Notes under the pieces: generated by a model
Databases searched by the model: none
The model's input: only the letters and a program-made list of their open reading frames with translations
Told to the model about the DNA's origin: nothing
Position numbers and translations under genes: made by a program
NCBI GenBank assembly: GCA_963763745.1
Contig: CAVXQJ010000016.1
Coordinates: 321,029 to 385,028, forward strand
Reading direction: 5' to 3'
DNA length: 64,000 nucleotides
Source: an uncultured delta proteobacterium
GTDB lineage: Bacteria > Myxococcota_A > Polyangia > Polyangiales > Polyangiaceae
Shown: positions 4,681 to 27,813 of the stretch, in pieces
How positions within the stretch are numbered: the first letter of the stretch is position 1
Layout: every line of letters starts with the position of its first letter

Positions 4681-5018
4681 TCGTCGATCGCGTCAACAAG
4701 CTCCTTGCGCTCAGCGCTTCGTCGAACATGCACGAAGCGCGCAACGCCGCGCTCCTCGCTGCGAAATTGATCCGCGAGCACGGTCTCGAAGTGCGCGAGC
4801 GCGACGTGCGTCGCAAGACGCCGCGCCCGACACCGAAACCGAAGCGACCGAGCTCGAAAAAAAATCGCGCGGTCGTTCCGCCGATCATCGAGAGCCCGCT
4901 CGGCGGCGATTGCGCCGTATGCGGCAAGCGCTATCGCGCGGGAACCGCCGTGCATTGGTCCGACGCGGACGGCGGCATCCACACTGCGTGCATCGAAGCG
5001 TGGTTGCGTCGCGGTTAG
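4681..5018 (+). CDS. Small protein with a DUF2786-like N-terminus and a Cys/His C-terminus
   Basis: This is the in-frame tail of a long junk [38 protein letters not shown] resembles the DUF2786 helix. The C-terminus has CAVCGK...H...H..C. Confidence 0.4.
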
Positions 5019-6926: not shown

Positions 6927-6931
6927 CGTAC

Positions 6932-8593: not shown

Positions 8594-8617
8594 TGCAGTA
8601 GAGCTTTCGCAGGCGCC

Positions 8618-9919: not shown

Positions 9920-9925
9920 AGGAGC

Positions 9926-11161
9926 GTGAGGGTCTTTCTTTCGGTCGTGGGGCTCGGGCTCGTCTTCGGGCTCATGGCCTCCGGTTGCAGTGGCGACAAC
10001 GCGCAGCCCGACGCAGGCAGCGACGCGAGCGACGAAGGCGACGCCGGGTTCGCCGCGCCTCACGCACCCATGCCGCAGGTCGTGTCGTCCGGCGGATCTG
10101 TGATCGCATCACCGAAGGTCGTGGCGATTTCGTTCCAAGGCGATCCGCTGCAGAGCGACGTCGATGCGTTCGCCTCGCAGCTCGTCTCCGCACCCGCGTA
10201 TTGGAGCGGCGCGGTCGGCGAGTACGGCGTCGGTGCGATCAACGAGACGCCGTATCACGCGCAAGAGACCGCGCCCGCGGGAACGATCAGCGACACCGAC
10301 GTGCAGACGTGGCTGACGAACAAGATCAACACGGACTCGACTTTCCCGAAGCCCGACGCGAGCACGATCTACACGCTCTTTTATCCGGCCGGCACGACGG
10401 TGGCCTCGGGGCTCGACACGACGTGCAACCAGATGCAGGGCTACCACAGCTCGTATCCGCTCTCGTCGAGCGTCAACGTCATCTACGCGATCGTCCCGCG
10501 TTGTCCGCCGCCGCCCGTCGCCGGCGTGACCAACGCCGATCAAATGACCGCGGAGGCGTCGCACGAGCTCGTCGAAGCAGCGACCGATCCGCTCCCATCG
10601 CAGACCCCGGATTACCTCTCGGTGGATTCGGACAGTCACGCGTGGGAGCTCCTCGCGGGCGGCGAGATCGGCGATCTCTGCGCCGCGTTTCCGAACTCGT
10701 TCTACAAAGCGTCCGGGTTCGATCACCTCGTGCAGCGCGTGTGGTCGAACCAAGCCGCCGCGGCGAATCACGATCCGTGTCAGCCCGATGGAACGTCGCC
10801 GTACTTCAACAGCGCGCCTCTCGTCGGCGACACGATCACCGTGCGCGTCGGCGGCGTTCCCATCAAGACGAAAGGCGTCGCGCTCGCCGTCGGCGCATCG
10901 ACGACGATCGAGGTCGATCTCTACAGCGACGCGCCGACGTCCGGGAAGTGGACGGTCTCGGTCGTCGACATCACGAGCGCCTTCTTCGGAGGCGCGCCCG
11001 CGCTCACGCTCACACTCGATCAAACGACGGGTCAGAACGGCGACAAGCTGAACCTCACGATCAAGCTCCTTCGCCTCGTGGTCGGTGGCGCGCCGTTCTG
11101 GATCCAGAGCGATCTCGGGAGCGCGACGACGGTGTGGCTCGGAGCGGTGAATCCCAACTAA
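9926..11161 (+). CDS. Secreted lipoprotein of unknown function (contains an HELVE motif)
   Basis: It has a lipobox (LMASGC-S) and a protein-like 411 aa. It lies 6 nt after the kinase stop. Confidence 0.55.
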   Translation: MRVFLSVVGLGLVFGLMASGCSGDNAQPDAGSDASDEGDAGFAAPHAPMPQVVSSGGSVIASPKVVAISFQGDPLQSDVDAFASQLVSAPAYWSGAVGEYGVGAINETPYHAQETAPAGTISDTDVQTWLTNKINTDSTFPKPDASTIYTLFYPAGTTVASGLDTTCNQMQGYHSSYPLSSSVNVIYAIVPRCPPPPVAGVTNADQMTAEASHELVEAATDPLPSQTPDYLSVDSDSHAWELLAGGEIGDLCAAFPNSFYKASGFDHLVQRVWSNQAAAANHDPCQPDGTSPYFNSAPLVGDTITVRVGGVPIKTKGVALAVGASTTIEVDLYSDAPTSGKWTVSVVDITSAFFGGAPALTLTLDQTTGQNGDKLNLTIKLLRLVVGGAPFWIQSDLGSATTVWLGAVNPN

Positions 11162-11162
11162 C

Positions 11163-12077
11163 GTGGGTCTCCGTCGCGCGATCATCGCATCGCTCCTGCT
11201 CGTCGCGACGGTGGCGCGCGCGCAAAATCGCGACGCGCGCCCCGAGGAGCCGAACGAATCGCAGCAGAGGCAGGAGTCGCGCGCGGCGTTTCGTCGAGGC
11301 GTCGCGGCGCTCGAAAAACAAAAGTGGACGGAGGCGCGCGACGATTTCGTTCGCGCGTACGAGCTCTTTCCGCACCCGAGCATCTTGCTCGACCTCGGCT
11401 TGTCGCGATCGCACGTCGGCGAGTGGGTCCAGGCCGAGCAGGATCTCACGCGCTTCTTGGCGGACGACACCGGCGCGCTCCCCGACGAGCTCCAAACTGC
11501 GCGCGGTGCGCTCACCGAAGTGCGAAGGCACGTCGGGACGATACGCGTGCGCGTCGCGCCCGCCGGCTCGACGGCTTCGCTCGATCACAAACCGATCGCG
11601 CTCGCATCGAGCGACTTCGTCGAGGTCCGCGTCTCCGAAGGCGATCACGAGCTCGAGGCCACGGCGAGCGATCACGACGTGTGGAGCGGGCACGTCGCGG
11701 TCGACGGCGGTGGTACGAAGGTCCTCGACCTCACGCTCACGCCGCACGTCGAGAAAGAAACGCCCCACGGACCCGGACCGCAGCGCATCGCGAGCTTCGT
11801 CTTGTTCGGCGGCGCCGTCGCGCTCGCCGGCTTCGGCGTCTTCGCCGGCGTGCACTCGATCGATCTCGCGAATCAATACAACACGCCGAGCGAGACGAAC
11901 TACCAGAACCCCGGAACGAAATCCGAAGGCATCGCGTACCGCACGGCTGCGGACGTGACGTTCATCGTGGCCGGCGTGTGCGTCGTCACGGGCGTCGTCT
12001 TGTACGTGACCGCGCCTTCGCAGAAAACGGGCGCGAGCGTTTCGCTTTCGCCGTTTGGAATCGCCGGCCGTTTTTGA
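11163..12077 (+). CDS. Kinase-associated membrane protein: signal peptide, TPR-like region, PEGA-like beta domain, TM helix and a conserved ...G-R-F C-terminal tail (paralog 1 of 4)
   Basis: Its architecture is shared with 12500..13426, 56135..57136 and 60924..61856. It starts 1 nt after the preceding gene. Confidence 0.6.
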   Translation: MGLRRAIIASLLLVATVARAQNRDARPEEPNESQQRQESRAAFRRGVAALEKQKWTEARDDFVRAYELFPHPSILLDLGLSRSHVGEWVQAEQDLTRFLADDTGALPDELQTARGALTEVRRHVGTIRVRVAPAGSTASLDHKPIALASSDFVEVRVSEGDHELEATASDHDVWSGHVAVDGGGTKVLDLTLTPHVEKETPHGPGPQRIASFVLFGGAVALAGFGVFAGVHSIDLANQYNTPSETNYQNPGTKSEGIAYRTAADVTFIVAGVCVVTGVVLYVTAPSQKTGASVSLSPFGIAGRF

Positions 12078-12080
12078 TCG

Positions 12081-12503
12081 TCAATCCGTGGCGGCTGCGT
12101 CCGCGCACGCCGCTTGCGATGCGCATCCCGCGACCGTCGTGCACACGGTGCACGCGACGACGCAGTCGTTGAGACACGTCGTCTCCGTTTGATCGCACGC
12201 CTTCTTGCACGGACTGCCCGAGCAGCCCGCGCGACACGTCGTGTCCGCTTGCACGCATCCTGCGCCGCACGTGCCCGCTTCGACCAAACACGGCGTGATC
12301 GTCGCGCACGCTTCGACGTTCACATCGAGTGGCGCGTCGGCGGCGGCGTCCGTGGATCCTTCGGCGTTCGCGTCGGGCGGCGCCGCCTCGTTCATCGCGT
12401 CGTCGAGCCCGGCATCGCCGACGATGCGCGTCTCCGTTCCGACGAGAAGCGTGCATCCTGCAAGCATCGCGGCGAGCACGGCGAGCCTCGCGTGCTGCTT
12501 CAT
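12081..12503 (-). CDS. Small Cys-rich lipoprotein
   Basis: The internal start gives MKQHARLAVLAAMLAGC-T, a lipobox, followed by 18 Cys in 75 aa. It overlaps the stop of the upstream TPR/PEGA gene. Confidence 0.5.
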   Translation of the reverse strand: MKQHARLAVLAAMLAGCTLLVGTETRIVGDAGLDDAMNEAAPPDANAEGSTDAAADAPLDVNVEACATITPCLVEAGTCGAGCVQADTTCRAGCSGSPCKKACDQTETTCLNDCVVACTVCTTVAGCASQAACADAAATD

Positions 12504-13426
12504 CGAAAAGTCCCCGTGATCGACAAGCCAGCGACGCTCGGCGCCATGCGCACCTCGGTGGCGTGCGAAGTGAGCACGAGCACCAGGCCCACGATGGCGA
12601 GCGCTGCGCCGCCGAAGATCATCGCGTCGGCGACGTTCGCTTCGGTCTTCGCGCGCTCGTGAAGATCGACCGCGTGCTGATCGACGCACACGCTCCCCGC
12701 GCATGATGCGTTGCTCTGTCCGTTGTCGGCGAGCGCGAGCCCGCCGAACACGCCGCCGACCGCGGCGGTCGCAACGCCAACGCCGCCGATGACGAACCCG
12801 AGCGTCCGCGTGAACGGCGTGTGCGTGTTCGTGACGACGGGACGAGCCGCGACCTGCACGGTCGGAGTCTTCGCGGCGGGTCCCACGGCGAGCGCGAAAT
12901 CGCGGCGCTCGTTCTCGGCGAGCGTCACCTCGAACACGCGGTCCGCGTGCCCCGGCGCGCGGACGATGAAATGATGCGCGCCGGGATCCATCGGAACGGG
13001 CACGTTCAAGAGCGCGTCACCGAGCGGCGCGCCGTCACGCTCGACCGAAGCGCCATGCGCGTCGAGCACGACGCGAAGCCGTGGAACGCGCTGCTCCAGC
13101 GCCGTGCTGTGCGACTGCACGTAAGCGCGCCTGTCGTCGGCGGGCGGAAGTTGATCGAGCAGCTGATGGAAGTGTTGCCACGCGCTCGCGAGCTTGCCGT
13201 TGCGCTCCTCGCAGTCGGCCAAGTTGAAGAGCGTTCCTTGCGTGGGATCGAGGCGGTAGCTCGCGGCGAACTTCGGACATGCAGCGGCGTAGTTGCCCGC
13301 ATCGGCGTCCGCGCGCCCTTCGCGAAAGAGCGCTTCCGCGCCGACGGCGTCGTGCGTCTGCGCGGCCGCGGCCGATGCGACGCACGATGCGACGACGAGC
13401 GCACGGACCGCGATCGAAAAGCGCAT
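12500..13426 (-). CDS. Kinase-associated TPR/PEGA-like membrane protein (paralog 2)
   Basis: The true start is MRFSIAVRALVVASCVASAAAAQ (a signal peptide) inside ORF 12500..13588. It is followed by a TPR-like region, a beta domain, a TM helix and a ...GTFR tail. The start overlaps the end of the kinase. Confidence 0.6.
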   Translation of the reverse strand: MRFSIAVRALVVASCVASAAAAQTHDAVGAEALFREGRADADAGNYAAACPKFAASYRLDPTQGTLFNLADCEERNGKLASAWQHFHQLLDQLPPADDRRAYVQSHSTALEQRVPRLRVVLDAHGASVERDGAPLGDALLNVPVPMDPGAHHFIVRAPGHADRVFEVTLAENERRDFALAVGPAAKTPTVQVAARPVVTNTHTPFTRTLGFVIGGVGVATAAVGGVFGGLALADNGQSNASCAGSVCVDQHAVDLHERAKTEANVADAMIFGGAALAIVGLVLVLTSHATEVRMAPSVAGLSITGTFR

Positions 13427-13430
13427 GCGA

Positions 13431-14870
13431 TCAGTAACGCCGATCGAACAGGTTCGCCGTGGGCGCCGCGGTCGCGGCCGGCGCGCTCGCATCTCGCGCT
13501 GCATCTCGCGTCGCGGCAGGCGCGCGCGGTTTGTTCTTCGCGACGCGCGGGGACTCGGACACATCGGCCGGCACGATCGGAGAAGCAATCGCCGTCGTCG
13601 TCGTCGTGGCTTGCGTCGCGGCCGTCGTCGTCACGACCTCCGAGGACGGTTGCGGCAGCGCGCTCACGACGGCATCCGGTGCGCTCGCCGCCGTGCGCCG
13701 CTCCTTTACCATCCACGCCGTCGCGGCGATGCACGCGAGCGCGGCGCTCGCGACGATGACCCAACGCGCGCGCGAGCTCTTCGGCGCCGCTGCGATCGGC
13801 GGAACCGATGGCTGCACACCGGCCGCATGCGGCCGCTGCGACCACGTCGGCGAGAAGGACATGTTGACGTCCCGCGACGACGGCGGCTCGCTGGTGCCAA
13901 AACCCGAGCCAAAACCCGATAGCGATGGGTTGCTCAACCGCGGGAGCGGCGGGTTGCTCGGCGTCCTCGGGATGTCCGCTCCGGTCAGCGCGTGAAACGC
14001 GACGTGAACCGCTGCGCCCATCGCGCTCGCGTTGGCCCAACGCGCATCGCGCTCGAGACGCAGCCCACCATCGACGACTGCGACGAGCTCCGGCGTTGCG
14101 TCGGGCAGCACCTTCGAGAGAGACGGCGGCTCTTTCGTGAACGTTGCGGCGATCATCTCGGCGGCCGTCATTTGATCCTGATGAATCATCCGTCCCGAGA
14201 GGAGCGTGAACATCGTCGCCGCGACGCCCCACAAATCGCTGCGCGTGTCGACGAGATCCCAACGACCGCGCGCTTGCTCGGGCGACATGAACGCGGGCGT
14301 TCCCATCGACACGCCCGATTGCGTCGACGTCGGCGTGCGCTCGCTCTCGAGCATGCGCGCGAGCCCGAAGTCGAGCACCTTCACGAGCCCGGCGGTCGTC
14401 ACGAAGAGATTGTCCGGCTTGATGTCGCGGTGGACGATGCCGAGCGCGTGCGCAGCGCCGAGCGCGTCGAGCACCTGCGCGGCGTACGCGAGCACGTCAT
14501 CGACCGGCAAGCGACCGCCGCGATCGCACGCGAGATCCTCGAGCGTTTTTCCCGCGAGGAGCTCCATCACGAGGAACGCCGCGCCGTCCTCGGCGACGTC
14601 GTCGTCGAGCACGCGCACCGCGCCAGGGTGATCCACTTTGTTTGCGAGATAACCCTCGCGGAGAAATCGCTCGCGCATCGACTCGAGCCGCGAGAGCGAG
14701 AGGTCGAGCACCTTCACGGCGCCGCGCATCCCGTTGCGATGCGTCGCTGCATACACCGCCGCCATCCCGCCGAGACCGAGCAGCGAATCGAGGCGCCACT
14801 TTCCGCGAAGGGTCGTCCCCACGCGCGCGAGAGCCTCAGCGTGGCGGGTGTCGGTTTCTTGTTGCGTCAA
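13431..14870 (-). CDS. Hanks-type Ser/Thr protein kinase with a TM helix
   Basis: GLGGMAAVYAA, AVKVL, HRDIKPDNLF, DFG, GTPAFMSPE and a TM helix (WVIVASAALACIAATAWMV) are all present. Confidence 0.85.
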   Translation of the reverse strand: MTQQETDTRHAEALARVGTTLRGKWRLDSLLGLGGMAAVYAATHRNGMRGAVKVLDLSLSRLESMRERFLREGYLANKVDHPGAVRVLDDDVAEDGAAFLVMELLAGKTLEDLACDRGGRLPVDDVLAYAAQVLDALGAAHALGIVHRDIKPDNLFVTTAGLVKVLDFGLARMLESERTPTSTQSGVSMGTPAFMSPEQARGRWDLVDTRSDLWGVAATMFTLLSGRMIHQDQMTAAEMIAATFTKEPPSLSKVLPDATPELVAVVDGGLRLERDARWANASAMGAAVHVAFHALTGADIPRTPSNPPLPRLSNPSLSGFGSGFGTSEPPSSRDVNMSFSPTWSQRPHAAGVQPSVPPIAAAPKSSRARWVIVASAALACIAATAWMVKERRTAASAPDAVVSALPQPSSEVVTTTAATQATTTTTAIASPIVPADVSESPRVAKNKPRAPAATRDAARDASAPAATAAPTANLFDRRY

Positions 14871-14911
14871 GGAGGTCCCTCCCCAAAAAAGCGCCCCACC
14901 TTACCACCAGT

Positions 14912-16699
14912 TCAGTGCGCGAACATCTCTTCTTCGACGAGCGAGGGCGCAATCGTCCCGTGGGCGAGGAGCGCGTCGTGGAAGCGTTTGAGCGAGAACT
15001 GAGCGCCCCATTCGCGCTTCGCGCGCTCGCGAATCGCGAGGATTTTCTGCCGCCCGACGAGGTAACTGGAGGGCTGCGTCGGCGTCTCCGTGTAGCGCTT
15101 CACTTCGCTCACGGCGAGCGCGCGTTCGAGGTGGACCTTGTCGGTCAAGAACGCGACGCCCTGATCGAACGTCATGCCCTTCGTGTGCAGCCCGACATCG
15201 ATCACGATGCGCGCCGCGCGAACGAGCGTCCATTCGAGCTGCATGATGCGCTCTTCATCGGTGTACATGCCGAGCTCGCTCATGAGCTCCTCGGCGTAGA
15301 GCGCCCATCCTTCCGCGAACACCGCAGGTCCCGTCGCTTTGCGCACGACGGACGGATGACGCCGCGCGATTGACAGTTGCAAATGGTGACCCGGATACGT
15401 CTCGTGCGTCGCGGTGTCGACCTGATCGCCGTGGTCGTTCTCGCGAAGCATTTGCTCCTGTTCTTTCTTCGAGGCCTTCAGATCGACCGGCGTGACGAAG
15501 AAAAATCCCTTCGTGACTTTGTCGAACGGCGGCGGCTGATCGTACGCCGCGGTGATCGTCGAGCGTTGGAACGGCGGCGTCTCGATCACTTCGCAGTCGT
15601 CGCCTTCGGGGAGCGTGACGACGTCCTTGTCGACCAAGAATTTCCGCGCGCGCTCGAGCTCGTGCCGGTAGCTCGGGAGCAAGTCGTTCGCGGTGGGATG
15701 ATGCGACTTCACCTTCGCCACGACCTCGGGCCACGACTTGGCCTTCGGGTCGATGCGTTTGGCGATTTCGTTCATCTGCGCGTCGGTCTCGGCGAAGATC
15801 TTCTGGCCCATCGCGACGAGATCCTCCGCGCTCTCGGTCAGGAAGAAATCCTGCTTCAAGAGAAAGTCGAACGTCTCCGCGCCCGCCGCGTAGTCGTCGC
15901 CGCCCATCGGGAGGACCTGCTTCTCGAGAAATTGCTTGTAGTCTGCATAGGCTTTTTGGGCCATTTGCAGGGCTTTTTCGATGCGCGCCTTCTCTTGCGG
16001 CAGCGCGTCTTGGAGGGGCTTTCGCTCGTCGTCGAAGAACTGCTTCGCGCCGCCCGCGGCTTCGATCCCGACTTGCGTCCACACCTTCGGCGGCTTCGGG
16101 ACGTAGAGCCGATTGGAGAGGTTCTTCTTCGCGTCTTCGAGCTGCGCCGGGATCTTCTCGATGCGCGCGAGCGCGTTCTTCGCGCGGTCGGCGGCGGGCG
16201 CGTAGTCGCGCGCCGTCATGAGGAAGATCGCGTTCATCGGGCCCATGTACGTGTCGGGCTTTCGACGCAGCGGGTCTTGCGAGCGCTTCATCTTGATGTC
16301 GACCGCGAGCGCGTGCTCGGTGATCGCGAGATCGGTGAGCGCGGCGCGCGTCGCGCGCGGCTCGGCGAAGCGCTTCTTCAAATCGTAGAGCATCTTCTCT
16401 TCGAGCCCGACGTCGTGCTCGAAGCCCGCGAGCGTGCGATCGTCGAGGTCGGCGTCGCGTTCGTGGAGCCCGAGCTGCGTGGCCGTCTCGGGAGAAATCT
16501 TCACGATGAGATCGACGTACTCCTGCCCGGCGCGCGCGATGGCGGCGTCGTCGCGATCGGCGGGCGGAGCGTCGGGTGGTTTCACGCTCGCGACGGCAGA
16601 CGCGCTCGCTTGCGTGGTGGGGTGGTCAGGCGGGTGACCAGTCTCGGGCGATCCGCACGCAGCAACTGCGATCACGAAGAGCATCGAGTAGCGAAACAT
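14912..16699 (-). CDS. DUF885-family lipoprotein (putative metallopeptidase-like)
   Basis: MFRYSMLFVIAVAAC-G is a lipobox. The THETYPGHHLQ motif is typical of DUF885, recalled from memory. The protein is 595 aa and the start is approximate. Confidence 0.65.
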   Translation of the reverse strand: MFRYSMLFVIAVAACGSPETGHPPDHPTTQASASAVASVKPPDAPPADRDDAAIARAGQEYVDLIVKISPETATQLGLHERDADLDDRTLAGFEHDVGLEEKMLYDLKKRFAEPRATRAALTDLAITEHALAVDIKMKRSQDPLRRKPDTYMGPMNAIFLMTARDYAPAADRAKNALARIEKIPAQLEDAKKNLSNRLYVPKPPKVWTQVGIEAAGGAKQFFDDERKPLQDALPQEKARIEKALQMAQKAYADYKQFLEKQVLPMGGDDYAAGAETFDFLLKQDFFLTESAEDLVAMGQKIFAETDAQMNEIAKRIDPKAKSWPEVVAKVKSHHPTANDLLPSYRHELERARKFLVDKDVVTLPEGDDCEVIETPPFQRSTITAAYDQPPPFDKVTKGFFFVTPVDLKASKKEQEQMLRENDHGDQVDTATHETYPGHHLQLSIARRHPSVVRKATGPAVFAEGWALYAEELMSELGMYTDEERIMQLEWTLVRAARIVIDVGLHTKGMTFDQGVAFLTDKVHLERALAVSEVKRYTETPTQPSSYLVGRQKILAIRERAKREWGAQFSLKRFHDALLAHGTIAPSLVEEEMFAH

Positions 16700-18149
16700 G
16701 AACGCTTCATACTCGACTCGACCAGCCGAAAACATACTCGACTATGCTGGTGGGATGGTTCCGCCGGCGCCGCGCTCGAGCTTCTCGCTCCCCGCGCCGG
16801 GTGACTTGCGCGATCGCGCGGATCGCGCCGGTGGTCACGCGCGGAGGCGCGGAAGGCCGCGCGATCGCTTCATCGCCGAGCGACGCGCGACGCTCCTTCG
16901 TTATCTCGTCCCGTGTCTCGCGCTCGCATCGATCATCGGCGCGTCGGTCGCGGTGGTCGACGTCGCGTTCGCATCGTTCGCACCCGATGAGCGCGCGACG
17001 ATGGCCGAAGCGGGCGCATCGGTCGTGCTCGCGATCGCCGTCGTGCTCGTCCTCGTGCTTCGCCGTCACTTGCGCGCGCTCGTCGTCGTGCACGGCGCGT
17101 CGGCGGTCGCGAGCCAGATCGCTTGGGGTTTTGCGGCGCGGTACACGGGCGGCGCGGCGAGCCCGTATCTCCTCGCGCTTCCGCTCTCGCACGTTCTCTA
17201 CGCGGGCGTCGTCCCGGCCGACGCGTGGGTCGCGGCCGCGAGCGGCGTCGCGTGTTACGGCTCGCTCTTGATCGCGAGCCCCACGTCGCCGCTCCCCGTG
17301 CATCTCGTCGTGCTCGCGTCGGCGACGGGATCGGTCGTGCTCGCGCTCGCGCGTCATCAGCGATCGCTTCGCACGTTCCTCCGCGCGGAGCGGCTCGCGG
17401 CGTCGCTCGCGCGCGTTCGCCGCATGCAAGAGCAGCTCATCGTCGTCGAGAAGCTCGAAGCGCTCCGCGTGCTCGTCGGCGGAATGGCGCACGAGCTGAA
17501 CAACGCGCTCGCGATCGCGATCGCGTCGAACCAACAAGCGACGCGCGATCTCGCGACGAACGCGGAGCTCGCAAAGGCGGCGATCGCACGCGGCGACGGG
17601 GGCCTCCAGCGCATCAAGAAGACCGTCGATCGACTTCGCCGCTTCGCGATGGCCGCCGAGGGCGTGCTCGAGCCCGCCGATGTCGGCGCGATGCTCGACT
17701 TCGCGCTCGAGAGCGCGATCGGCCGCGCGCGCTCGGGCGTCGTCGTCGAGCGCACGTACGATCCGCAAGTCGGCTCGCTCGAAGTGCACGTCTCCGCGCT
17801 CGCCGAGGCGCTCTATCAAGTCGCGCGCAACGCGGTCGAGGCGATGCCCGGCGGCGGAACGATCTCCGCGAGCGTGCGCAAGGAGGGCGATCGCGTCGTC
17901 CTCTCCGTCGCCGATCAAGGGCAGGGGATCTCGCCCGAAGAAATCCCGCGCGTGTTCGATCCGTTCTTCCGCGCGAAGGGAAAGAGCGGCGTGACGAAGA
18001 GCGGGCTCGGTCTGTCCGCGGTGTACGGGCTCATCACGGCCATCGGAGGTCACATCGACATTCGCAGCGAAGTAGGCAAGGGCACCGAAGTCGCGATCGC
18101 GATGCCCGCGCGAAAAACCGCGTTGTCCGTTCGCCCACCGTCCACATGA
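16698..18149 (+). CDS. Membrane sensor histidine kinase. The start is uncertain and probably lies downstream of 16698.
   Basis: There are multiple TM helices, an HisKA H-box (GGMAHELNNAL) and HATPase motifs (DQGQGI, GKSGVTKSGLGL). The stop overlaps the next gene's ATG in an ATGA overlap. Confidence 0.75.
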   Translation: MNASYSTRPAENILDYAGGMVPPAPRSSFSLPAPGDLRDRADRAGGHARRRGRPRDRFIAERRATLLRYLVPCLALASIIGASVAVVDVAFASFAPDERATMAEAGASVVLAIAVVLVLVLRRHLRALVVVHGASAVASQIAWGFAARYTGGAASPYLLALPLSHVLYAGVVPADAWVAAASGVACYGSLLIASPTSPLPVHLVVLASATGSVVLALARHQRSLRTFLRAERLAASLARVRRMQEQLIVVEKLEALRVLVGGMAHELNNALAIAIASNQQATRDLATNAELAKAAIARGDGGLQRIKKTVDRLRRFAMAAEGVLEPADVGAMLDFALESAIGRARSGVVVERTYDPQVGSLEVHVSALAEALYQVARNAVEAMPGGGTISASVRKEGDRVVLSVADQGQGISPEEIPRVFDPFFRAKGKSGVTKSGLGLSAVYGLITAIGGHIDIRSEVGKGTEVAIAMPARKTALSVRPPST

Positions 18150-21100
18150 CGAAAAAAAACGGAGACGTCGTCGGCGCGCGTTTCGTGATCGAGAGCCTCG
18201 CAGGCGAAGGCGGAATGGGTGAGGTGTATCGCGCCAAGGATCGCGAGCGCGGCGCGGACGTCGCGCTGAAGATTTTTCGAACGCGCGCACGCGCGAACGA
18301 ACAGGAAGCGCGCACGCTGCTCGAGCTCGTTCATCCGAACATCGTGCGCTGCGTCGCGTTCGGCACGACCGACGAGGGGAGCGATTTTCTCGCGACGGAG
18401 TGGCTCGACGGCGAGACGCTGCGCGCCCGCCTCGCGCGAGGCGCGGTGCCGATGACGCAAACGATCCGCATCGCGCGCCGCGTCGCCGAGGGGCTCGCCG
18501 CGGCGCACGCGTGGGGAATCACGCATCGCGACGTCACGCCGGCGAACGTGATGCTGCTCCCCGACGGACAAGTGAAGCTCCTCGACTTCGGTCTCGCCGT
18601 TCACGGACGCGAAGGCGGCGCAGCGGGCACCGTCGGCTACGCCGCACCCGAGCAAGCGCGCGGCGATCCGCTGACGCCGCGCGCCGACGTGTTCTCGCTC
18701 GGCTGCGTGATCTACGAGTGTCTCCTCGGAGAGAAACCTTTCGCCGCCGAGACCGACGTCGCGGTGATCGCGCGCATGCTCGAAGGCGACACGGCGCGCG
18801 TGACGGCGCGCCTCACGGGCGTGCCGAGCGCGCTCGTGCGTCTCGTCGCGCGAATGCTCGCAAGCGATCCGGAGGCGCGTCCGCATGGCGCAGCGGCGGT
18901 CGCGTCGGAGCTCGCGGTGCTCGAAGCGCGCGAAGGTCAGAAGAGCGAGCCGGCCGCGACGATCTCGACGACCGACAAAGGGCCGTCCGCATTTCCGAGC
19001 AGTCGATCCGTCACGGACGCGGAGGCGCGCGCGTCGCAAGCGCTCGTCGCGGAGACGGCGGCCGCGGGCAGCGCGCGTTTGAACGCGGAGCTCGAAGCGC
19101 TCGGCGCGGCGGTCACGCGAGCCGGGTCGCGCGTCGTGTGCGTGTGGCAGACCGAGACGTCCGCGGTCGAGCGCGCGGTGCGCGGTGCGCGCGCGGCGCT
19201 CGCGGTGTTGCGATCGGATGCCCACGCGCGCGTCGCGCTCGCCGCGTCGACGTCCGCGTCGATCGCGGAGAGCTCCGCGATCGAGGCGCTCCCCGAGGCG
19301 CCGTCGATCCGCATCGACGCGGACACGGCGCGGCTCCTCGGCGATCGCTTCGTCATCCGTCCCGACGGCGACGAGCTCGTTCTCCTGCGCGAAGGCGCGA
19401 GCCCGCATTCGCGTACGTCGCTGCTCGGACACGAGACGCGATGCGTCGGTCGCGATCGCGAGATCGGCCTCATCGTGTCGACGTTCGAAGAGTGCCGCGA
19501 CGAGCCCGACGCGCGCGTCGTGTGGGTGACGGGCCCACCGGGAATCGGAAAGACGCGCGTGCGCGACGAGGTCATCACGCGCATCGTCAGCGGCGATGCG
19601 CCGCCGCGCGTGTGGAGCGCGCAAGCGGATCCGACTCGCGCGGGCGTCGCGCTCGGCGTGCTCGGGGATCTCGTACGTTCGGCGGCCGCGATCGTGGAAG
19701 GCGACGACGCGCGCCACGAGCACGCCTCGCTCGAGTCGCGCGCGTGCGCGCGCGTCAACGCGATCGACAAGCCGCGCGTCGTCGAGTTTCTCAGCGAGCT
19801 CTTGCGAATCCCCATCGCGGATCCGAGCCCGCAGCTCAAGGTCGCGCGCGAAGAGCCGCTCTTGATGGGCGATCAGGTTCGTCGCGCGTTCGAGGATCTC
19901 GTCCTCGCCGAGCTCGCGGCCGGATCGCTCGCGATCGTCGTCGAGGATTTGCAGTGGGCGGACGCCGCATCCGTTCGCGCGCTGTCCGACGTCGCGCGCG
20001 CGGCGCGCGAAAGGCCGCTCTTCATCTTGCTCCTCGGACGACCCGAAGCGAAAGACACGCTCCTTCGTCTCGTCGCGGATCGTCAGCCGACGGGCGTCGC
20101 GCTCGGCAAGCTCGGAACGAAGGCGATGGAGAAGCTCGTCGCGTCCGCGCTCGCCGGCGCCGACGGACAAGCGATCGACGCGGAGCTCGTCGCGAGCATC
20201 GCGACGCGCGCGGGCGGCAATCCGTTCTTCGCCGAGGAGCTCGTCCGCGCGACGGCGACGGGCGCGGCGCCGATGGCCGCGCTCGCGATGCTCGAGTCGC
20301 GCCTCACGAGCCTCGAGCCCGAAGCGCGCCGCGTGCTCCGCGCAGCGAGCGTGTTCGGACAGCAGTTCGTCTCGAGCGACGTCGCGGTGCTCCTCGGCGA
20401 CGACGGGCAAGGTGCGTCGGTCGAGTTCGTCGATGCGTGGTGCGCGTGGCTCGCCGAGCGCGAGGTGCTCTCGCAGAGCGCGGGCGTGTGGTCGTTCCGT
20501 CACGCGCTCGTCCGCGACACGGCGTACTCGATGCTCACCGACGCGGATCGAAAGACCGCGCACGCGCTCGCCGCCGAGCTCCTCGAGCGATCGCAACGCG
20601 CTCCTGGACCGGTCATCGCCGATCATTTCGCGCGCGCGGGCGAGCCCGAGCGCGCTTCGCGGTGGCTCGCGTCCTCCGCGACCGATGCGCTCGAGGCCAA
20701 CGACTTGAGCGCGTGTGTCGACCTCGGCGAGCGAGCCATCGCAGAGGCCGCGACGGGCGATTGGCGCGGCGAGCTCCTCGTCGTTCTCGCCGAAGCGCAT
20801 CGCTGGCGAGGCGAGTTCGAGCGCTCCGCGGCGTGCTCGCGTGAAGCGATCGATCTTCTGCCCGAAGGCAGCGCGCGGTTCTTTCGCGCCGTCGCCGAGC
20901 TCGCCGCAGCGACGGGAACGGCGGGGCCTCCCGATCAGTTCGAGCTCGCGCTCGCAAAGCTCGCGACCCTGCCGCACGACGACGCGAAGGGCGCCGCGTC
21001 GACCGCGTGCAGCCGCGCGGCGATGCACCTCATCGTGCGCGGCGACCCGCGCGGCGATGTGCTCCTCGCGCGCGCCGACGCGTCCGCGGACTCCAATCTC

Positions 21101-21877
21101 GCGCGCGGTCGCGTGAATCAAGCGTACGCATTCCGAGCAAACATTCGCGGAGAGCTCGAAGAGACGATGCACCGATACACCGCGAGCACGCGCGCGTTCG
21201 AAGCGGCCGGCGATCTTCGCACCGCGTGCGTGCAGGAGCTCAACGCGGCCGCGGCGCTCTGCGAGCTCGGGCGCGACGACGAAGCGCGTACGCGCCTCGA
21301 CCGCGGAGCACGCGAAGCCGACGCGCGAGGTCTCCTCTCCGCCGTCGCGCTCGCGCACCACCTCGGTGGAATCCTGCTCGCGCGCGAGGGCCGCATCGAC
21401 GAAGCCATCGCGGAGCAGCTCCGCGCGATCGAGACGTTCACCGCGCAAGGCAACGCGCGCATGGAGGGAGGCGTCCGGTGTCATCACGCCGAGCTCTTGC
21501 TCAAAGAGAGGAGGCTCGACGAAGCGCTCGCCGAAGCAAAGCGCTCCTGCGATTTGCTCGCGGCGGTCGCGCCGGCGCGCGCACGCTCGCTCGCGGTGCT
21601 CGCGCTCGTTCACATCGCGCGCGGCGACACGCCCGCGGCGCTCGACGCATCGAAGGAAGCGCTCGCGCTCGCCGAGACCGCGGGCGTCGAATCCGGCGAG
21701 GCCATCGTCTACGCCGCGCGCGCCGACGCGCTCACGCTCGCCGGCTCCGCCGAAGCCGCCACCGTGCGCGAAACCGGGCGAAAAAAGCTCCTCGCGCGCG
21801 CGGGCACGATCGCCGACGCGTCGCTCAAGAAGAGCTTCCTCGCCGTCCCGGAGAACGCGCGCCTCCTCACATCTTGA
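18146..21877 (+). CDS. Multidomain Ser/Thr kinase fused to an AAA/STAND-type ATPase with C-terminal TPR repeats (1243 aa)
   Basis: The kinase domain has GEGGMGEVYRA, HRDVTPANV, DFG and GYAAPE. The P-loop is VWVTGPPGIGKTR. A long TPR-like tail follows. The frame is continuous for 3.7 kb. Confidence 0.85.
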   Translation: MTKKNGDVVGARFVIESLAGEGGMGEVYRAKDRERGADVALKIFRTRARANEQEARTLLELVHPNIVRCVAFGTTDEGSDFLATEWLDGETLRARLARGAVPMTQTIRIARRVAEGLAAAHAWGITHRDVTPANVMLLPDGQVKLLDFGLAVHGREGGAAGTVGYAAPEQARGDPLTPRADVFSLGCVIYECLLGEKPFAAETDVAVIARMLEGDTARVTARLTGVPSALVRLVARMLASDPEARPHGAAAVASELAVLEAREGQKSEPAATISTTDKGPSAFPSSRSVTDAEARASQALVAETAAAGSARLNAELEALGAAVTRAGSRVVCVWQTETSAVERAVRGARAALAVLRSDAHARVALAASTSASIAESSAIEALPEAPSIRIDADTARLLGDRFVIRPDGDELVLLREGASPHSRTSLLGHETRCVGRDREIGLIVSTFEECRDEPDARVVWVTGPPGIGKTRVRDEVITRIVSGDAPPRVWSAQADPTRAGVALGVLGDLVRSAAAIVEGDDARHEHASLESRACARVNAIDKPRVVEFLSELLRIPIADPSPQLKVAREEPLLMGDQVRRAFEDLVLAELAAGSLAIVVEDLQWADAASVRALSDVARAARERPLFILLLGRPEAKDTLLRLVADRQPTGVALGKLGTKAMEKLVASALAGADGQAIDAELVASIATRAGGNPFFAEELVRATATGAAPMAALAMLESRLTSLEPEARRVLRAASVFGQQFVSSDVAVLLGDDGQGASVEFVDAWCAWLAEREVLSQSAGVWSFRHALVRDTAYSMLTDADRKTAHALAAELLERSQRAPGPVIADHFARAGEPERASRWLASSATDALEANDLSACVDLGERAIAEAATGDWRGELLVVLAEAHRWRGEFERSAACSREAIDLLPEGSARFFRAVAELAAATGTAGPPDQFELALAKLATLPHDDAKGAASTACSRAAMHLIVRGDPRGDVLLARADASADSNLARGRVNQAYAFRANIRGELEETMHRYTASTRAFEAAGDLRTACVQELNAAAALCELGRDDEARTRLDRGAREADARGLLSAVALAHHLGGILLAREGRIDEAIAEQLRAIETFTAQGNARMEGGVRCHHAELLLKERRLDEALAEAKRSCDLLAAVAPARARSLAVLALVHIARGDTPAALDASKEALALAETAGVESGEAIVYAARADALTLAGSAEAATVRETGRKKLLARAGTIADASLKKSFLAVPENARLLTS

Positions 21878-21914
21878 CGCGCGCGCGCGTTTTCCATAAG
21901 CGTACGGCCCGAAG

Positions 21915-22812
21915 ATGCAGTCGGTTGCGTCCGCCCGAAGAGTCGCGTCCCCACGCGTTTTGGCGCGCGACGTGCTCGCGCTCGCGAAGCCGCGCATCAC
22001 GTCGATGGTGCTTCTCACGGCGGCCGGCGGCCTGTGGCTGGCACCGGGTCACGCGTCGCGCACGGCGACCGTGTGCGCGCTCCTCGGCACCGCGCTCATC
22101 GTGAGCGGCGCGAACGCGCTCAACATGTTCATCGAGCGCGACATCGACGGCTTCATGAAGCGCACGAAGGATCGCCCGCTCCCGGCGGGTCGCATGCCCG
22201 CGCGCTTCGCGCTCGTGTTCGGCGTCGCGCTGTCGGTGCTCGCGGTTCCGATCCTCGCGCTCGGCGTCAACGCGCTCGACGGCGCTCCTCGCGGTCCTCG
22301 CGAACCTTCTCTACGTGCTCGCGTACACGCCGCTCAAGCAGCGCTCGCACTGGGCGCTTCAGGTCGGCGCGGTGCCCGGCGCGATCCCTCCGCTCCTCGG
22401 TTGGACGGCAGCGACGGGACGCGTCGACGCGGCGGGCTCGTCCTCTTCGCGATCCTGTTTTTCTGGCAGATCGCCGCATTTTCACGCGATCGCGCTCTTC
22501 CGAAAGCTCGAGTACGGACGCGCGGGCCTCGTCGTTCTTCCGAATGTCGAAGGAGACGAATCCGCGCGTCACAGCATCGTGCGCCACGCGAGCGCGCTCG
22601 CCGCGGTGAGCCTGCTCCTCTATCCGCTGCACGTCGCGCACGGGATTTACGTCGCGTCCGCGCTCGCGCTCGGCGCTTCGTTCATCGCCGTCTCGCTCCT
22701 CGGCATTCGCAAAACGGTCAGCCCGCGCTGGTCGCGCCGCGTCTTCGGAGCCTCGCTCGTGTATCTCGTAGGTCTCTTCGCAGCGATCGCCGCCGACGCG
22801 ATTTGCTCATGA
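21915..22812 (+). pseudogene. ctaB: Protoheme IX farnesyltransferase (heme O synthase), with three frame changes
   Basis: The protein is split across ORFs 21915..(frame 0) and 22315..22812 (frame 1). Recognisable pieces are [90 protein letters not shown](PHF)HAIALFRKLEY. The frame changes are a +1 event near 22280 (ctcGacggcg), a -1 event near 22440 (gggg to ggg) and a +1 event near 22478 (atcGccgcat). Confidence 0.8.
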
Positions 22813-23228
22813 CCCCTTGGCGCCTTGGCGCCTTGGCGATCTTTCTCTTCGCCTGCGAGACGCGCATGCCCGATTTCCACGGCGTCGCGCTCGGCATGGC
22901 CCCACGCGACGTGCGCGATCGCTTCGACGTGAAAGGCGCGTTCGACGTCGAGCCCTCGGCCGACGATTTCAAAATGCGATTTTCCCCCGAGACGAAGGCG
23001 ACGGTCACGACGGCGCAGTTCGAGTTCCACATGGGCGCGCTCGTCGCGATCCGCGCCGACATCGCGCCGAGCGATCCATTCGCGCGCGGCGAGGACACCG
23101 TCGTCACGAAAGCGATCGTCCTTCATCGCGCGCGCTCGCCCGAGTCGGTGCACATCGACGAGCTCGCGCGCGATTGCCCCTCGCATCACGCCGAGGCGGA
23201 GAAGCTCGTCGCGCCATCGGCGCGATGA
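22809..23228 (+). CDS. Small putative lipoprotein
   Basis: The ATG overlaps the ctaB stop (ATGA). MTPWRLGALAIFLFAC-E is followed by a protein-like 139 aa. Confidence 0.4.
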   Translation: MTPWRLGALAIFLFACETRMPDFHGVALGMAPRDVRDRFDVKGAFDVEPSADDFKMRFSPETKATVTTAQFEFHMGALVAIRADIAPSDPFARGEDTVVTKAIVLHRARSPESVHIDELARDCPSHHAEAEKLVAPSAR

Positions 23229-24037: not shown

Positions 24038-24667
24038 ATGCAAATTTTCCCCCGAGCTCTGAACAAGCTGCCGCTCTACGGCGCCGTTGGCAGTCTATTC
24101 GCGATGACCGCGGTCGTCGGAGTGTTTTGGTATTACTTCTCGCCGAAGAACCTCCAGGTCGGGTACGCGCCGAAGCAACCGGTGCCGTACAGCCATCGCC
24201 TCCATGCGGGGCAAATGGGCATCGACTGCCGCTACTGCCACGCGCAGGTCGAGCGCGCCGCACACGCGATGATCCCGCCGACGCAAACGTGCATGGGGTG
24301 TCACGCGGTCGTGAAGACCGACAGCGCGATGCTCGCGCCCGTCCGCGAGAGCTGGGAGACCGGCGAGCCGGTGCAGTGGGTCAAGGTCCACAAGCTCCCC
24401 GAGCACACCTACTTCAATCACAGCGTGCACCTCGCGGTCGGCGTCGGCTGCGCAACGTGCCACGGTCGCATCGATCAAATGGACGTCGTGCGTCTCGATA
24501 AACCGATCGCGATGCAGTGGTGCCTCGAGTGCCACAGAAACCCGACACCGAACCTTCGCCCGAAGGATCAGATCACCAACATGAGCTGGACGCCCGAACA
24601 AGCGCCCGCCGGCTGGAAACCGCCGGAAGTGCATCCCCCCACGAACTGCAGCGGGTGCCACCGATGA
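24038..24667 (+). CDS. actA: Alternative Complex III subunit ActA (pentaheme cytochrome c)
   Basis: There are five CxxCH motifs (CRYCH, CMGCH, CATCH, CLECH, CSGCH) and an N-terminal TM anchor. The start may instead be at 24002. Confidence 0.85.
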   Translation: MQIFPRALNKLPLYGAVGSLFAMTAVVGVFWYYFSPKNLQVGYAPKQPVPYSHRLHAGQMGIDCRYCHAQVERAAHAMIPPTQTCMGCHAVVKTDSAMLAPVRESWETGEPVQWVKVHKLPEHTYFNHSVHLAVGVGCATCHGRIDQMDVVRLDKPIAMQWCLECHRNPTPNLRPKDQITNMSWTPEQAPAGWKPPEVHPPTNCSGCHR

Positions 24668-27600
24668 GCAAGCGGCAACCGTTTCCCCAGGAAGAGATCT
24701 CCCCGAACGCGAAAGCGATCTGGAAGAGCCTCGACGAAAAGCGCGATCCCGCGGCGGCAAAAGAGGAAGCGAAGAAAGAGTTCTTCGCGCCGATCCAGCT
24801 TTCGCGACGCGGTCTCTTCGGGTTCGGCGCGGCGACCGCTGCGCTCGCAACCTCGGGATGCCTTCGCCGTCCCGTCGAGCACATTTATCCGTACACGAAG
24901 GCGCCGGAGTACGTGATCCCCGGCGTCGCCGATCACTACGCGACGATTCTCCCGCGTCGCGGCGAAGTCGTCGGCGTGCTCGTCGAGAGCCACGAAGGCC
25001 GCCCGACGAAGGTCGAAGGCAACGAAGAACATCCGACGTCGCTCGGCGGCGCCGACTCGCTGCTCCAAGCCGCGACGATGGATCTCTACGACGCCGATCG
25101 CTCGACCGACGTCCGCGAAAAAGGAAAAAAGAGCGACTGGGCCGCGTTCGACAAAGCGTTCGCCGCGATCCTGAAGACGCTCCAAACGGACGGCGGGTCG
25201 AAGCTCCGCGTGCTCGTGCGTCCGTCGCAATCGCCGACGATGCTGCGCCTTCGCACGCTCGCATCGGAGAAGTTCCCGCACGCGCGCGTTCACATGTACG
25301 CGCCCGTCGCGGAGTCGAACGTCCGCGAAGGCGGGCGCATCGCGTTCGGAACGCAAGTCGTCCCGCGATACAACTACGCCTTCGCCAAAGCGATCGTCGC
25401 GCTCGACGCCGACGTGCTCCACACGGAGCAAGGCTCGATTCACGCGACGAAGGGCTTCGTGCGCGGTCGCAAGATCGAGCGCGCGAGCGATCCGATGAGC
25501 CGCTTGTACGTCGTCGAGCCGACGCTCACTGTGACGGGCGCGAACGCCGACGAGCGCTTGCGTCTCCCCGCCGCGCACGTCGACGCGTTCGCGCGCGCGC
25601 TCGCAGCGGAGCTCGCGGACAAAGGCATCGATCTCGGTCCGATCAAGGACTCGGTCGCTGGCGCGAAGGCGCCGGAAGGATCCGAAGCGTTCCTCAAAGC
25701 CGCCGCGGCGGATCTCGTCGCGAACAAAGGCAAAGGCGTGCTCGCCGCGGGTCGCCGTCAACCGGCGCACGTCCACGCGCTCGTTCACGCGATGAACACC
25801 GCGCTCGAGAACGTTGGTCGCACGGCGAGCTACGCGCCCGTCGTCGACGTGACGGAGCCGGCGGATCTCGCGGGCGATCTCAAAGCGCTCGCCGACGACA
25901 TCGACGCAGGCAACAAAGTCGACGTCCTCCTCATCCTCGGCGGAAACCCCGTCTACGACGCGCCCGGCGACATCAAGCTCGCCGCGAAGATCGACACGAT
26001 CCCGACGACGATCCACCTCTCCTCGCACTTCGACGAGACGAGCGAGCACTGCACGTGGCACATCCCGCTCGCGCACGAGCTCGAGAGCTGGGGCGATGGC
26101 CGCGCGTTCGACGGCACGTGGTCGATCCAGCAGCCGCTCATCGCGCCGCTCCACGACGGTCGCTCGATCATCGAAATCTTCGCGAACCTCACCGACGAAG
26201 CTCCGCACGGTCACGAGCTCGTCCGCGCGACGTTCCGCGAGCGCGCAGCGACTCCATCGCGCTTCGAAGGCGCGTGGAAGACGGCGCTCCGTCTCGGCCT
26301 CGACTCCGGCTCGAACTCGATTCAGTTCGAAGCGCACGCGACGCTCACCGACGTCGCCGCCGCGATCACGAAGGTCCCGCTCGGCAAGCCCATCGGCGCG
26401 CAGAACATGGAGCTCGCGATCGCGCCGTGCAACAAGCTCCACGACGGCGCATCGGGCAACAACCCGTGGCTGCTCGAAGTGCCCGATCCGATCACGAAGA
26501 TCGTCTGGGACAACGCCGCGCTCTTCTCGCCCGCAACCGCGAAGGCGCTCGGCATCGACGGCGGCGACATCGTTTCGATCGCGCGCGAGGGCTCACAGAC
26601 GATCGAAGTCGTCGCGTGGGTCCAACCCGGTCAAGCCGACAACTCGATCGCGCTCTCGCTCGGTTGGGGCCGCCAGAACGCGGGCCGCTACGGCAACACG
26701 CGCGGCTTCAACGTGAACCCCGTGCGCTCGTCCAAGTCGATGGACATGCTCGACGGCGCGCGCGTCTCGAAGACCGGCAAGATCTACAAGGTCGTCCAGA
26801 CGCAAGATCACGATCGCATGGAAGGCCGCCCGCTCGCGATCGACGCGACGCTCGACGAGTTCAAATCGAACCCCGCGTTCGTCCTCTTCCCGAGCACGTC
26901 GCGCAAAGACGAGGTCGTCACCGGTCCGCTCCACCGCGAGCTCGAGCGACCGGGCTCGCCCACGCCGAAGGCGCAACCGCTTTGGGACCGCGTGAAATAC
27001 GAGGGCCACAAGTGGGGCATGACGATCGACCTCAACGCGTGCACCGGTTGCAACGCGTGCGTCGTCGCGTGCATCGCCGAGAACAACATCGCGTTCGTCG
27101 GCAAGGAACAAGTCTTCCGCGGCCGCGAGATGCACTGGATCCGCATCGACCGCTACTTCGTCGGCGACAGCGAAGACGACCCGGAGGTCGCGTTCCAACC
27201 CGTCGCGTGCGTGCAGTGCGAAGAAGCGCCGTGCGAAAACGTCTGCCCCGTCAACGCGACGATCCACAGCGACGAAGGCCTCAACGACATGGCCTACAAC
27301 CGCTGCATCGGCACGCGCTACTGCGCGAACAACTGCCCGTACAAAGTCCGCCGCTTCAACTTCCTCGAGTGGCGCGGCCCCGAAGGCGCGCAGCAGCGCG
27401 TCCAAGATTTGTACGACAACATCCCCGAGACCGAGAAGCTCGCGTTCAACCCGAACGTCACGGTGCGCATGCGCGGCGTGATGGAGAAATGCACGTACTG
27501 CGTGCAGCGCATCGAAGAAGCCAAGATCGGCGCGCGCCGCGAGACTCGCGCGATCTTGCCGAACGAGATCAAGACCGCCTGCCAGCAAACCTGCCCGGCT

Positions 27601-27813
27601 GACGCGATCACCTTCGGCGATCTCAACAACCCGAAGGCGGAAGTGACGCGCCTCCAGCGCAGCGAGCGCGGCTACGCGCTCCTCGCCGTCCTCGGCACGC
27701 ACCCGCGCACGACGCACCTCGGAAAGATCCGAAACCCGAGCCCAGCACTCCACAAACCGAAGGTCGCCGATCAGAAACACGAAGGCGGAAGCTCGGGGGA
27801 GGCGCCGAAATGA
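24664..27813 (+). CDS. actB: Alternative Complex III subunit ActB (molybdopterin-oxidoreductase-like domain fused to an Fe-S domain)
   Basis: Tat signal [19 protein letters not shown]. There are three Cys-rich Fe-S motifs ([37 protein letters not shown]). It is 1049 aa and its ATG overlaps the actA stop. Confidence 0.9.

Follow-up and report, generated by a model that had tools for sequence, protein, structure and literature searches.

Do two kinases of different chemistry whose genes share a stop and start codon also share a pathway? The question is raised by a 64-kb stretch of DNA from an uncultured member of the Polyangiaceae (contig CAVXQJ010000016.1), here called the window. It contains a gene for a membrane-bound sensor histidine kinase (HK) that runs directly into a gene for a Ser/Thr kinase of 1243 amino acids (aa) with a STAND-type ATPase, hereafter the STAND kinase. 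Mixed loci of His and Ser/Thr kinases are known in myxobacteria, which have hundreds of Hanks kinases and many orphan HKs. To our knowledge, the wiring between the His and Hanks phosphorylation systems in these bacteria is little described outside a few Myxococcus examples. An initial annotation of the window, made from the sequence alone, described the pair and suggested that the HK may signal through the STAND kinase. The reading favoured here, with moderate confidence, is a coupled unit of an orphan class I HK with six transmembrane (TM) helices and a STAND kinase of the PknK/MalT clade, added in one subclade, which act on one pathway by cross-regulation. Co-expression and cross-regulation of the two proteins are plausible.

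The window has a GC content of 0.62–0.72, and long spurious open reading frames (ORFs) occur in all frames. The two genes are found in plus-strand ORFs, the HK at 16698–18149 and the STAND kinase from an ATG at 18146 inside a longer ORF at 17123–21877. Both ORFs are intact over their full length, and their GC content at third codon positions (GC3; 0.84 for the HK and 0.85 for the STAND kinase) is of the coding type, compared with 0.51–0.76 for overlapping antisense and alternative ORFs. The HK is 100% identical to the database protein P0001 (464 aa) and the STAND kinase to P0121 (1243 aa), both from one 607-kb contig. The junction reads ATGA at 18146–18149 on the plus strand, with ATG at 18146–18148 and TGA at 18147–18149, so the overlap of the HK stop with the ATG of the giant protein is confirmed directly. 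The HK start at 16698 (483 aa) in the initial annotation is not borne out. The likelier start is M20 of that ORF, at 16755 (464 aa), because P0001 begins there and orthologues align from there. A start at 16698 is also disfavoured because it would abut the start of a divergent DUF885 lipoprotein gene at 16699; DUF885 orthologues align from residues 3–7. The change moves the left boundary by 57 nt and leaves the overlap, located at the HK stop, unaffected. For the same reason a start well downstream, named in the initial annotation as a possible refutation, has no bearing on the overlap. A promoter and terminator scan of 16300–22300 shows nothing above shuffle expectation, with no terminator-like signal between or after the two genes that exceeds chance. 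As gene layout goes, the conserved ATGA overlap implies one mRNA and coupled synthesis. The description of a compact two-gene unit that mixes two-component and Hanks-type signalling is supported.

A scan of species-representative genomes with the HK alignment gives 49 orthologous loci (L003–L051), and more loci come from context look-ups. To count the pairing, tblastn with the window proteins was run on the loci with 3 kb or more of sequence downstream of their HK, 48 when the window is counted. In six of these, the window and L003–L007, the HK is followed by the STAND kinase, and all six have a full-length HK identity of at least 66%. The pairing is absent from all 42 other loci, whose HK orthologues are more distant. 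The same arrangement is present in L094 (HK 80% identical), and L095 has the same 4-nt overlap with the downstream gene cut off. The ATGA overlap is identical in all eight related loci with the pairing (L001, L003–L007, L094 and L095, where L001 and L007 are the same place). The proposed check for conservation in relatives thus finds the pair, overlap included, in every locus with an HK at least 66% identical and in none of the 42 more distant ones. The HK and STAND kinase identities fall together (84/71, 82/69, 80/65, 77/59 and 66/51%), which suggests that the STAND kinase was acquired once and then passed on vertically. Identities of STAND kinase homologues outside the clade drop abruptly from 51% to 44% or less, and neither the sampled homologues at 39–44% identity nor the paralogues of Chondromyces and Sorangium have an HK gene beside them. 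In no locus of the clade does the STAND kinase orthologue occur away from the HK. Judged from gene order, the STAND kinase is a clade-specific addition behind the HK, into a variable slot between two conserved blocks.

The most distant genome with the pairing is that of L001/L007. Its genes at 7370–19137 of that locus encode, in order, a response regulator with a single domain (147 aa), a DAO-type oxidoreductase fused to the TPR/PEGA protein, the HK, the STAND kinase, and lastly a paralogue of the STAND kinase that is 35–38% identical in the NTPase/TPR part.

The HK (16755–18149, plus strand, 464 aa) is supported by its ORF, Pfam and NCBIfam matches, identity to P0001, the family alignment, an AlphaFold model, and GC3. 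It comprises an N-terminal cytoplasmic tail, six TM helices, and then the DHp and catalytic ATP-binding (CA) domains. Pfam HATPase_c scores 79.2 bits (cut-off 26.4; 3.8e-22), while HisKA reaches 19.4 bits, below its gathering score of 26.9. NCBIfam AtoS and ZraS alignments span the DHp-CA part, and all are far below the equivalog cut-offs. Motif scan and alignment predict the phospho-accepting His as H246 in the 464-aa numbering (codon 17490–17492, plus strand), within the H-box MAHELNNAL. The CA domain (17661–18107, plus strand) is marked by the N box with N359, the G1 box DQGQG, the F box FDPF and the G2 box GLGLS, as well as by HATPase_c and the model. All 19 aligned orthologues retain H246 and the N, G1, F and G2 boxes without change, and the DHp and CA domains are strikingly conserved, with long invariant runs across the family, with or without a STAND kinase neighbour. 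The DHp-CA part of the model, with a two-helix DHp, matches solved HKs such as KinB, ZraS and HK853, and PDB fold matches cover only this part. By its H-box and CA boxes, in sequence and in the predicted fold, the HK is a class I (HisKA-type) sensor kinase.

The membrane module of the HK (aa ~35–200; 16857–17354, plus strand) has six predicted TM helices with very short loops, according to the model and hydropathy. The model helices are 35–72, 79–101, 106–130, 137–152, 157–174 and 180–265, with a pLDDT of 85–95. An extra N-terminal helix is also present in the model, and TM6 extends without a break into DHp helix 1. Neither the model nor Pfam shows a HAMP, PAS or periplasmic domain, and the N-terminal 240 aa have no Pfam family match at E≤1. 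Since the six TM helices feed directly into the DHp helix, the HK is read as an intramembrane or membrane-state sensor. The HK family, an orthologous group spread through the Polyangia, includes at least 875 proteins at E≤1e-10, and its named members come from Polyangiaceae and Pendulispora. Throughout this family, genes for an AMP-binding enzyme, a Hanks kinase (~430–450 aa) and a TPR/PEGA protein (~300 aa) form a same-strand cluster that ends with the HK gene.

The cytoplasmic tail of the HK (aa 1–40; 16755–16870) is conserved as [FL]-S/T-L-P, then LRDRA, and then GRPRxR[YF], the last of which is present in 103 of 120 homologues. A conserved phospho-acceptor in the [FL]-S/T-L-P motif was considered and rejected, as Ser or Thr is found in only 76 of 111 homologues and is too variable.

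The STAND kinase (18146–21877, plus strand) is identified by its translation, Pfam, identity to P0121, and GC3. It is read as cytosolic, and no TM segment is found in it. The N-terminal Hanks-type kinase domain (aa 16–252; 18191–18901, plus strand) matches Pkinase (PF00069) with 148.9 bits (cut-off 31.7; 2.4e-43). Next comes a degenerate class III nucleotidyl-cyclase homology domain (aa 291–416; 19016–19393, plus strand). This region has the cyclase-homology fold, but neither the sequence membership of class III cyclases nor their catalytic motifs, such as the metal-binding Asp pair. It gives no Guanylate_cyc match at E≤1 in Pfam, a search of the PDB with a six-orthologue profile yields no cyclase, and the canonical motifs F-x-D-I-x-G-F-T and G-D are absent from the alignment by eye. 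The domain is probably non-catalytic. The STAND NOD (aa ~430–815; 19433–20590, plus strand) has the nucleotide-binding, helical and winged-helix domains of its class. It contains AAA_16 at aa 432–627 (58.3 bits, Pfam cut-off 32.6), the Walker A motif GPPGIGKT at aa 463–470 (19532–19555), and the Walker B motif AIVVEDLQWAD at aa 596–606. The C-terminal region (aa ~821–1243; 20606–21874, plus strand) consists of an arm and a TPR-type sensor superhelix. Its Pfam TPR matches are sub-threshold (22–25 bits, cut-off 30.1), and the TPR assignment is supported by a profile search, which finds consensus TPR at 7e-7 and MalT (1hz4) at 6.5e-4, and by the model. A profile is needed here; a single-sequence search of the NTPase/TPR part against the PDB gives no match. 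Residues 291–1243 were modelled from 36 homologues with a pLDDT of 89.4 and a pTM of 0.83. The initial annotation was right about the N-terminal Hanks kinase, the P-loop (GPPGIGKTR), the TPR repeats and the MalT/PknK-like architecture, and it missed the cyclase-homology domain. Domain searches, which it had proposed as a check, place HATPase, Pkinase and AAA_16 above cut-off; HisKA and TPR are sub-threshold and are backed by motifs, profile and model.

The kinase domain has the Gly loop, the VALK Lys, the HRD Asp, Asn134, DFG and APE. Its catalytic loop is atypical, HRDVTPAN (aa 127–134; 18524–18547, plus strand), with the Lys of canonical HRDxKxxN replaced by Thr131 and no Arg at +4. HRDVTPAN is present in all intact kinase domains of P0121–P0136, P0138, P0140, P0143 and P0144, while P0141 has HRDVTPGN and P0142 has HRDITPAN. 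The Lys-to-Thr loop is thus found in all STAND kinase orthologues and in the two next-closest homologues (P0143 and P0144), which are not HK-linked. Most others of the 120 best homologues have HRDxKPxN, and Thr or Ser occupies the Lys position in about a fifth. An assignment as an anti-phage defence kinase was rejected. The PADLOC matches (PD-T4-6, Mad6, PglW and MkoA) cover the kinase domain only and are generic, two other Hanks kinases of the window score equally well, and no system partner genes are seen.

Receiver domains were searched for with an iterated receiver-domain hidden Markov model (HMM) over six-frame translations; tblastn with CheY alone missed the receiver gene of L001. The sole receiver domain in the window is at 51604–52206, 33 kb from the HK. 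Of 51 related loci, 44 lack any receiver domain within 10 kb of the HK, and the receivers in the remaining few differ in type and position and are not conserved. The claim that no cognate response regulator is adjacent thus holds for the window, where none is present within 33 kb, and for the 51 related loci, which have no conserved one. The HK is a conserved orphan. The receiver HMM finds no receiver domain in the STAND kinase, and an Hpt domain is also lacking, so that canonical His-to-Asp transfer to this protein is not possible. Direct His-to-STAND phosphotransfer appears unlikely from the sequence, since there is no acceptor domain.

The favoured mechanism comprises two sensors on one pathway. 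The six-TM module of the HK would sense the state of the membrane or envelope, possibly with the TPR/PEGA protein and the membrane Hanks kinase of the upstream cluster. The HK would then autophosphorylate on H246 and pass the phosphate to an unlinked response regulator. Binding of a ligand or partner to the TPR sensor would switch the STAND kinase on, by analogy with MalT, APAF-1 and PknK, and ADP/ATP exchange and oligomerisation would bring its kinase domains together. The two proteins would meet through Ser/Thr phosphorylation of the HK or its regulator, or through a shared input, with no His-to-STAND phosphotransfer. In evolutionary terms, the STAND kinase gene would have joined that of the HK, immediately after its stop, in the forebear of one subclade, and the two would have been inherited together since.

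Several observations weigh against this coupled unit. Overlaps of 4 nt occur in 10 of 55 other same-strand neighbour pairs in related loci (~18%; hand count from gene tables), and with such overlaps so frequent in these genomes, this one is not in itself proof of a partnership. It is not unusual as such; its conservation stands out. The slot after the HK holds different, unrelated genes in L002, L019, L085 and L089. With its Lys-to-Thr change, the STAND protein may be a kinase of low activity or a pseudokinase. The AlphaFold model of the HK is of moderate confidence only (overall pLDDT 76, pTM 0.50).

The common overlaps and the variable slot are in line with the alternative that survives best, in which the two genes are neighbours without a partnership. 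A member of a hugely expanded kinase family would have landed in the variable slot between the HK cluster and a cluster of heme O synthase and alternative complex III (ACIII) genes, and the ATGA would be ordinary packing kept by inertia. More than 5000 homologues at E≤1e-20 share the STAND kinase architecture, the sampled paralogues stand alone, and the HK-heme O synthase synteny also exists without a STAND kinase. This alternative is nevertheless unlikely. The overlap and gene order are kept in every clade locus, down to 66% HK and 51% STAND kinase identity, and the orthologue stays with the HK throughout the clade, while the upstream side was rearranged at least twice.

The atypical loop leads to a second alternative, in which the STAND protein is a pseudokinase or scaffold that, instead of phosphorylating substrates, would oligomerise on ligand binding and recruit other proteins, such as the HK or the upstream conventional kinase. 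The catalytic-loop Lys, Lys168 in PKA, helps to position the gamma-phosphate (PMC3415842, PMC4718504). Its replacement in all orthologues, compared with HRDxKPxN in most paralogues, the lack of a basic residue at +2 or +4, and the adjoining degenerate cyclase-like domain all fit a non-catalytic protein. The retention of the other kinase motifs, from the Gly loop to APE, argues instead for nucleotide binding and probably for catalysis, and the Thr/Ser variant is also found in homologues that are not HK-linked (P0143 and P0144). A pseudokinase is therefore improbable.

The weakest alternative is the one suggested in the initial annotation, that the STAND kinase replaces a response regulator as the output of the orphan HK, through HK activity or through direct passage of phosphate. 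It is very doubtful, because the pairing exists only at an HK identity of 66% or more, within an HK family far older than the pairing (42 of the 48 informative loci lack it), whose long-standing and almost universal neighbours are a different, membrane-bound Hanks kinase and a TPR/PEGA protein, and because the STAND kinase has neither a receiver nor an Hpt domain. The absence of a nearby response regulator, the stop/start coupling kept in the clade, and the persistent linkage of the HK family to Hanks kinases speak for such an output, and the TPR sensor could in principle bind the cytoplasmic part of the HK. The near-invariance of DHp and CA with or without the STAND kinase, however, suggests that a conserved partner is encoded at another place in the genome. 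In myxobacteria it is the norm for orphan HKs to have unlinked regulators, which further weakens the suggestion, as does the position of the nearest STAND kinase homologues outside the clade, away from any HK. A more far-reaching variant, to which very little credence is given, is a hybrid membrane signalling complex of the polytopic orphan HK and Hanks kinases without a response regulator. The TPR sensor of the STAND kinase would read the state or the N-terminal tail of the HK, HK activity would gate STAND oligomerisation and Ser/Thr output, and the older cluster would follow the same logic, as a Polyangia-wide module for envelope sensing that has not been described.

The coupled unit resembles several known systems in part. 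PknK of Mycobacterium tuberculosis belongs to the MalT-type STANDs (PMC4381067). Like PknK, the STAND kinase of the window is cytosolic, with an N-terminal Hanks kinase effector, a P-loop NOD and a TPR-type sensor, a likeness that rests on architecture and not on the M. tuberculosis PknK sequence. Pkinase-AAA_16-TPR proteins of Chondromyces and Sorangium, some annotated 'PknK', are 34–39% identical to it over the full length. The presence of the degenerate cyclase-homology domain between kinase and NOD, the HRDVTPAN loop in place of HRDxKPxN, and the coupling to an HK gene differentiate it from PknK-type kinases. MalT of E. coli and PH0952 of Pyrococcus horikoshii are STAND ATPases with a TPR sensor, and the profile of the STAND kinase matches 1hz4. 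STAND proteins work by an inducer-driven ADP/ATP switch and oligomerisation (PMC4381067, PMC6468293). The effector here is an N-terminal protein kinase and not a DNA-binding domain as in MalT and PH0952, and the structural evidence here is a predicted model. The TOMM kinase/cyclase fusion family (TIGR03903) has the same order of kinase, cyclase-like domain, ATPase and repeats. Membership of this family was rejected, with 195.6 bits over two matched stretches against a cut-off of 705.75 and no TOMM biosynthesis genes among the neighbours examined.

In the Esp system of Myxococcus xanthus, where EspA acts with PktA5 and PktB8, HKs and Ser/Thr kinases are encoded together and serve one pathway (PMC4320627). 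Within that system (EspA/EspC, PktA5, PktB8 and EspB), EspA and EspC are hybrid kinases with receivers, and the Pkt kinases are not STAND proteins. The HK scores only 77–82 bits on the NCBIfam EspA/EspC models, against cut-offs of 1200–1400. The resemblance to Esp is, on this comparison, an analogy of wiring and not homology. Control of two-component systems by Hanks kinases is exemplified by PrkC-WalRK, PknH-DosR and Stk1-CovR, as cited in PMC6213207. These three act on a known response regulator, mostly from uncoupled genes, whereas the HK and STAND kinase genes are coupled. By analogy, a Ser/Thr kinase that modulates His-Asp output would be the most likely type of functional link here.

Neither component of the locus is new in kind: the HK is of class I, and the STAND kinase is of the PknK/MalT type, which is very abundant in Polyangiaceae. 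What appears new is that one clade has an orphan HK hard-wired to a STAND kinase, together with the Lys-to-Thr loop and its conservation, and the Polyangia-wide cluster of ligase, kinase, TPR/PEGA protein and HK. The locus thus provides two conserved linkages, a broad one of membrane Hanks kinase, TPR/PEGA protein and six-TM HK, and a narrow one in which a PknK-like STAND kinase shares the translation unit of the HK in one clade. The conserved Lys-to-Thr loop offers a simple handle on catalysis versus assembly as the signalling mode of such proteins. Current ideas are not overturned, and the value of the locus lies in candidates and not in surprise.

The ancestral cluster is found in loci from Polyangiaceae, Labilithrix and Pendulispora, and the window copy of its ligase, kinase and TPR/PEGA genes is at 6923–12077. 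Among its carriers is a cultured species, Pendulispora brunnea (CP089982.1, 2417807–2439219). The first gene encodes an acyl-CoA-ligase-like AMP-binding enzyme (6923–8593 stop-to-stop, plus strand; Pfam AMP-binding 8.6e-81), whose match to the NCBIfam long-chain-fatty-acid-CoA-ligase subfamily is below cut-off. A ligase orthologue is upstream of the HK in 31 of 36 loci. The second encodes a membrane-anchored Hanks kinase with canonical HRDLKPAN and one TM helix (8594–9919 stop-to-stop, plus strand; Pfam and translation). It is the ancestral partner of the HK, and its orthologue lies ~2.2–2.8 kb upstream of the HK in 34 of 36 loci. A predicted lipoprotein of no known family (9920–11161, plus strand) is inserted into the cluster and has homologues only in the close clade (L003–L006). 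The TPR/PEGA protein (11163–12077, plus strand) has a signal peptide and two C-terminal TM helices, as read from the translation, with Pfam TPR_2 and a weak PEGA match. Of 50 loci with sufficient flank, 48 have a homologue of it upstream of the HK, which in 37 is the directly adjacent gene; in L085–L088, the TPR/PEGA stop overlaps the HK start by 1 nt. No published description of the cluster was found in a limited literature search, and the 6525–12077 cluster with the HK may itself represent a conserved signalling module that has not been described. A divergent PilZ gene is located at ~6525–6914, beside the ligase end.

A minus-strand block of three genes (12500–16699), identified by Pfam, separates the HK from the ancestral cluster. 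It consists of a TPR protein (12500–13588), a second Hanks kinase (13431–14870), and the DUF885 lipoprotein (14912–16699), which is divergent from the HK. DUF885 is in the same place in L003, L004 and L006, and is absent in L005 and L007, where the TPR/PEGA gene still abuts the HK. The upstream side of the HK has been rearranged at least twice within the clade. As gene order suggests, the two-gene unit of the window is the product of the STAND kinase insertion and a later upstream insertion. Homologues of the Hanks kinase/TPR pair at 12500–14870 move around the neighbourhood in relatives. In L015 and L017 they are upstream of the ligase gene (kinase 52–55% identical), in L003, L004 and L006 they are on the plus strand after the ligase (kinase 42–47% identical), and in L019 a more distant pair (32–33%) directly follows the HK.

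Downstream of the unit, a frameshifted heme O synthase (CtaB/CyoE) gene (21915–22812, plus strand) begins 37 nt after the STAND kinase stop. The UbiA protein of L085 matches it in two pieces, 21951–22481 in frame 3 and 22312–22809 in frame 1, and a 437-aa ORF at 21915–23228 is a chimera of the split frames. The intact orthologue of L094 (299 aa) scores 268.6 bits on TIGR01473 (cut-off 210.3). A quinolinate synthase (nadA) homologue at 5018–5939 on the minus strand is likewise split between frames (5178–5939 and 5018–5353). Two broken conserved genes in 64 kb suggest indel errors of the assembly over real pseudogenes. Heme O synthase is followed on the same strand by alternative-complex-III-like genes at 24038–27813, which encode a multihaem cytochrome c and a molybdopterin/Fe-S subunit. 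Heme O synthase and these genes are syntenic downstream of the HK with or without the STAND kinase, and the short gaps may allow read-through from the HK and STAND kinase genes into respiratory genes. In L094 the order is the same, and an NrfD-type subunit gene comes after them.

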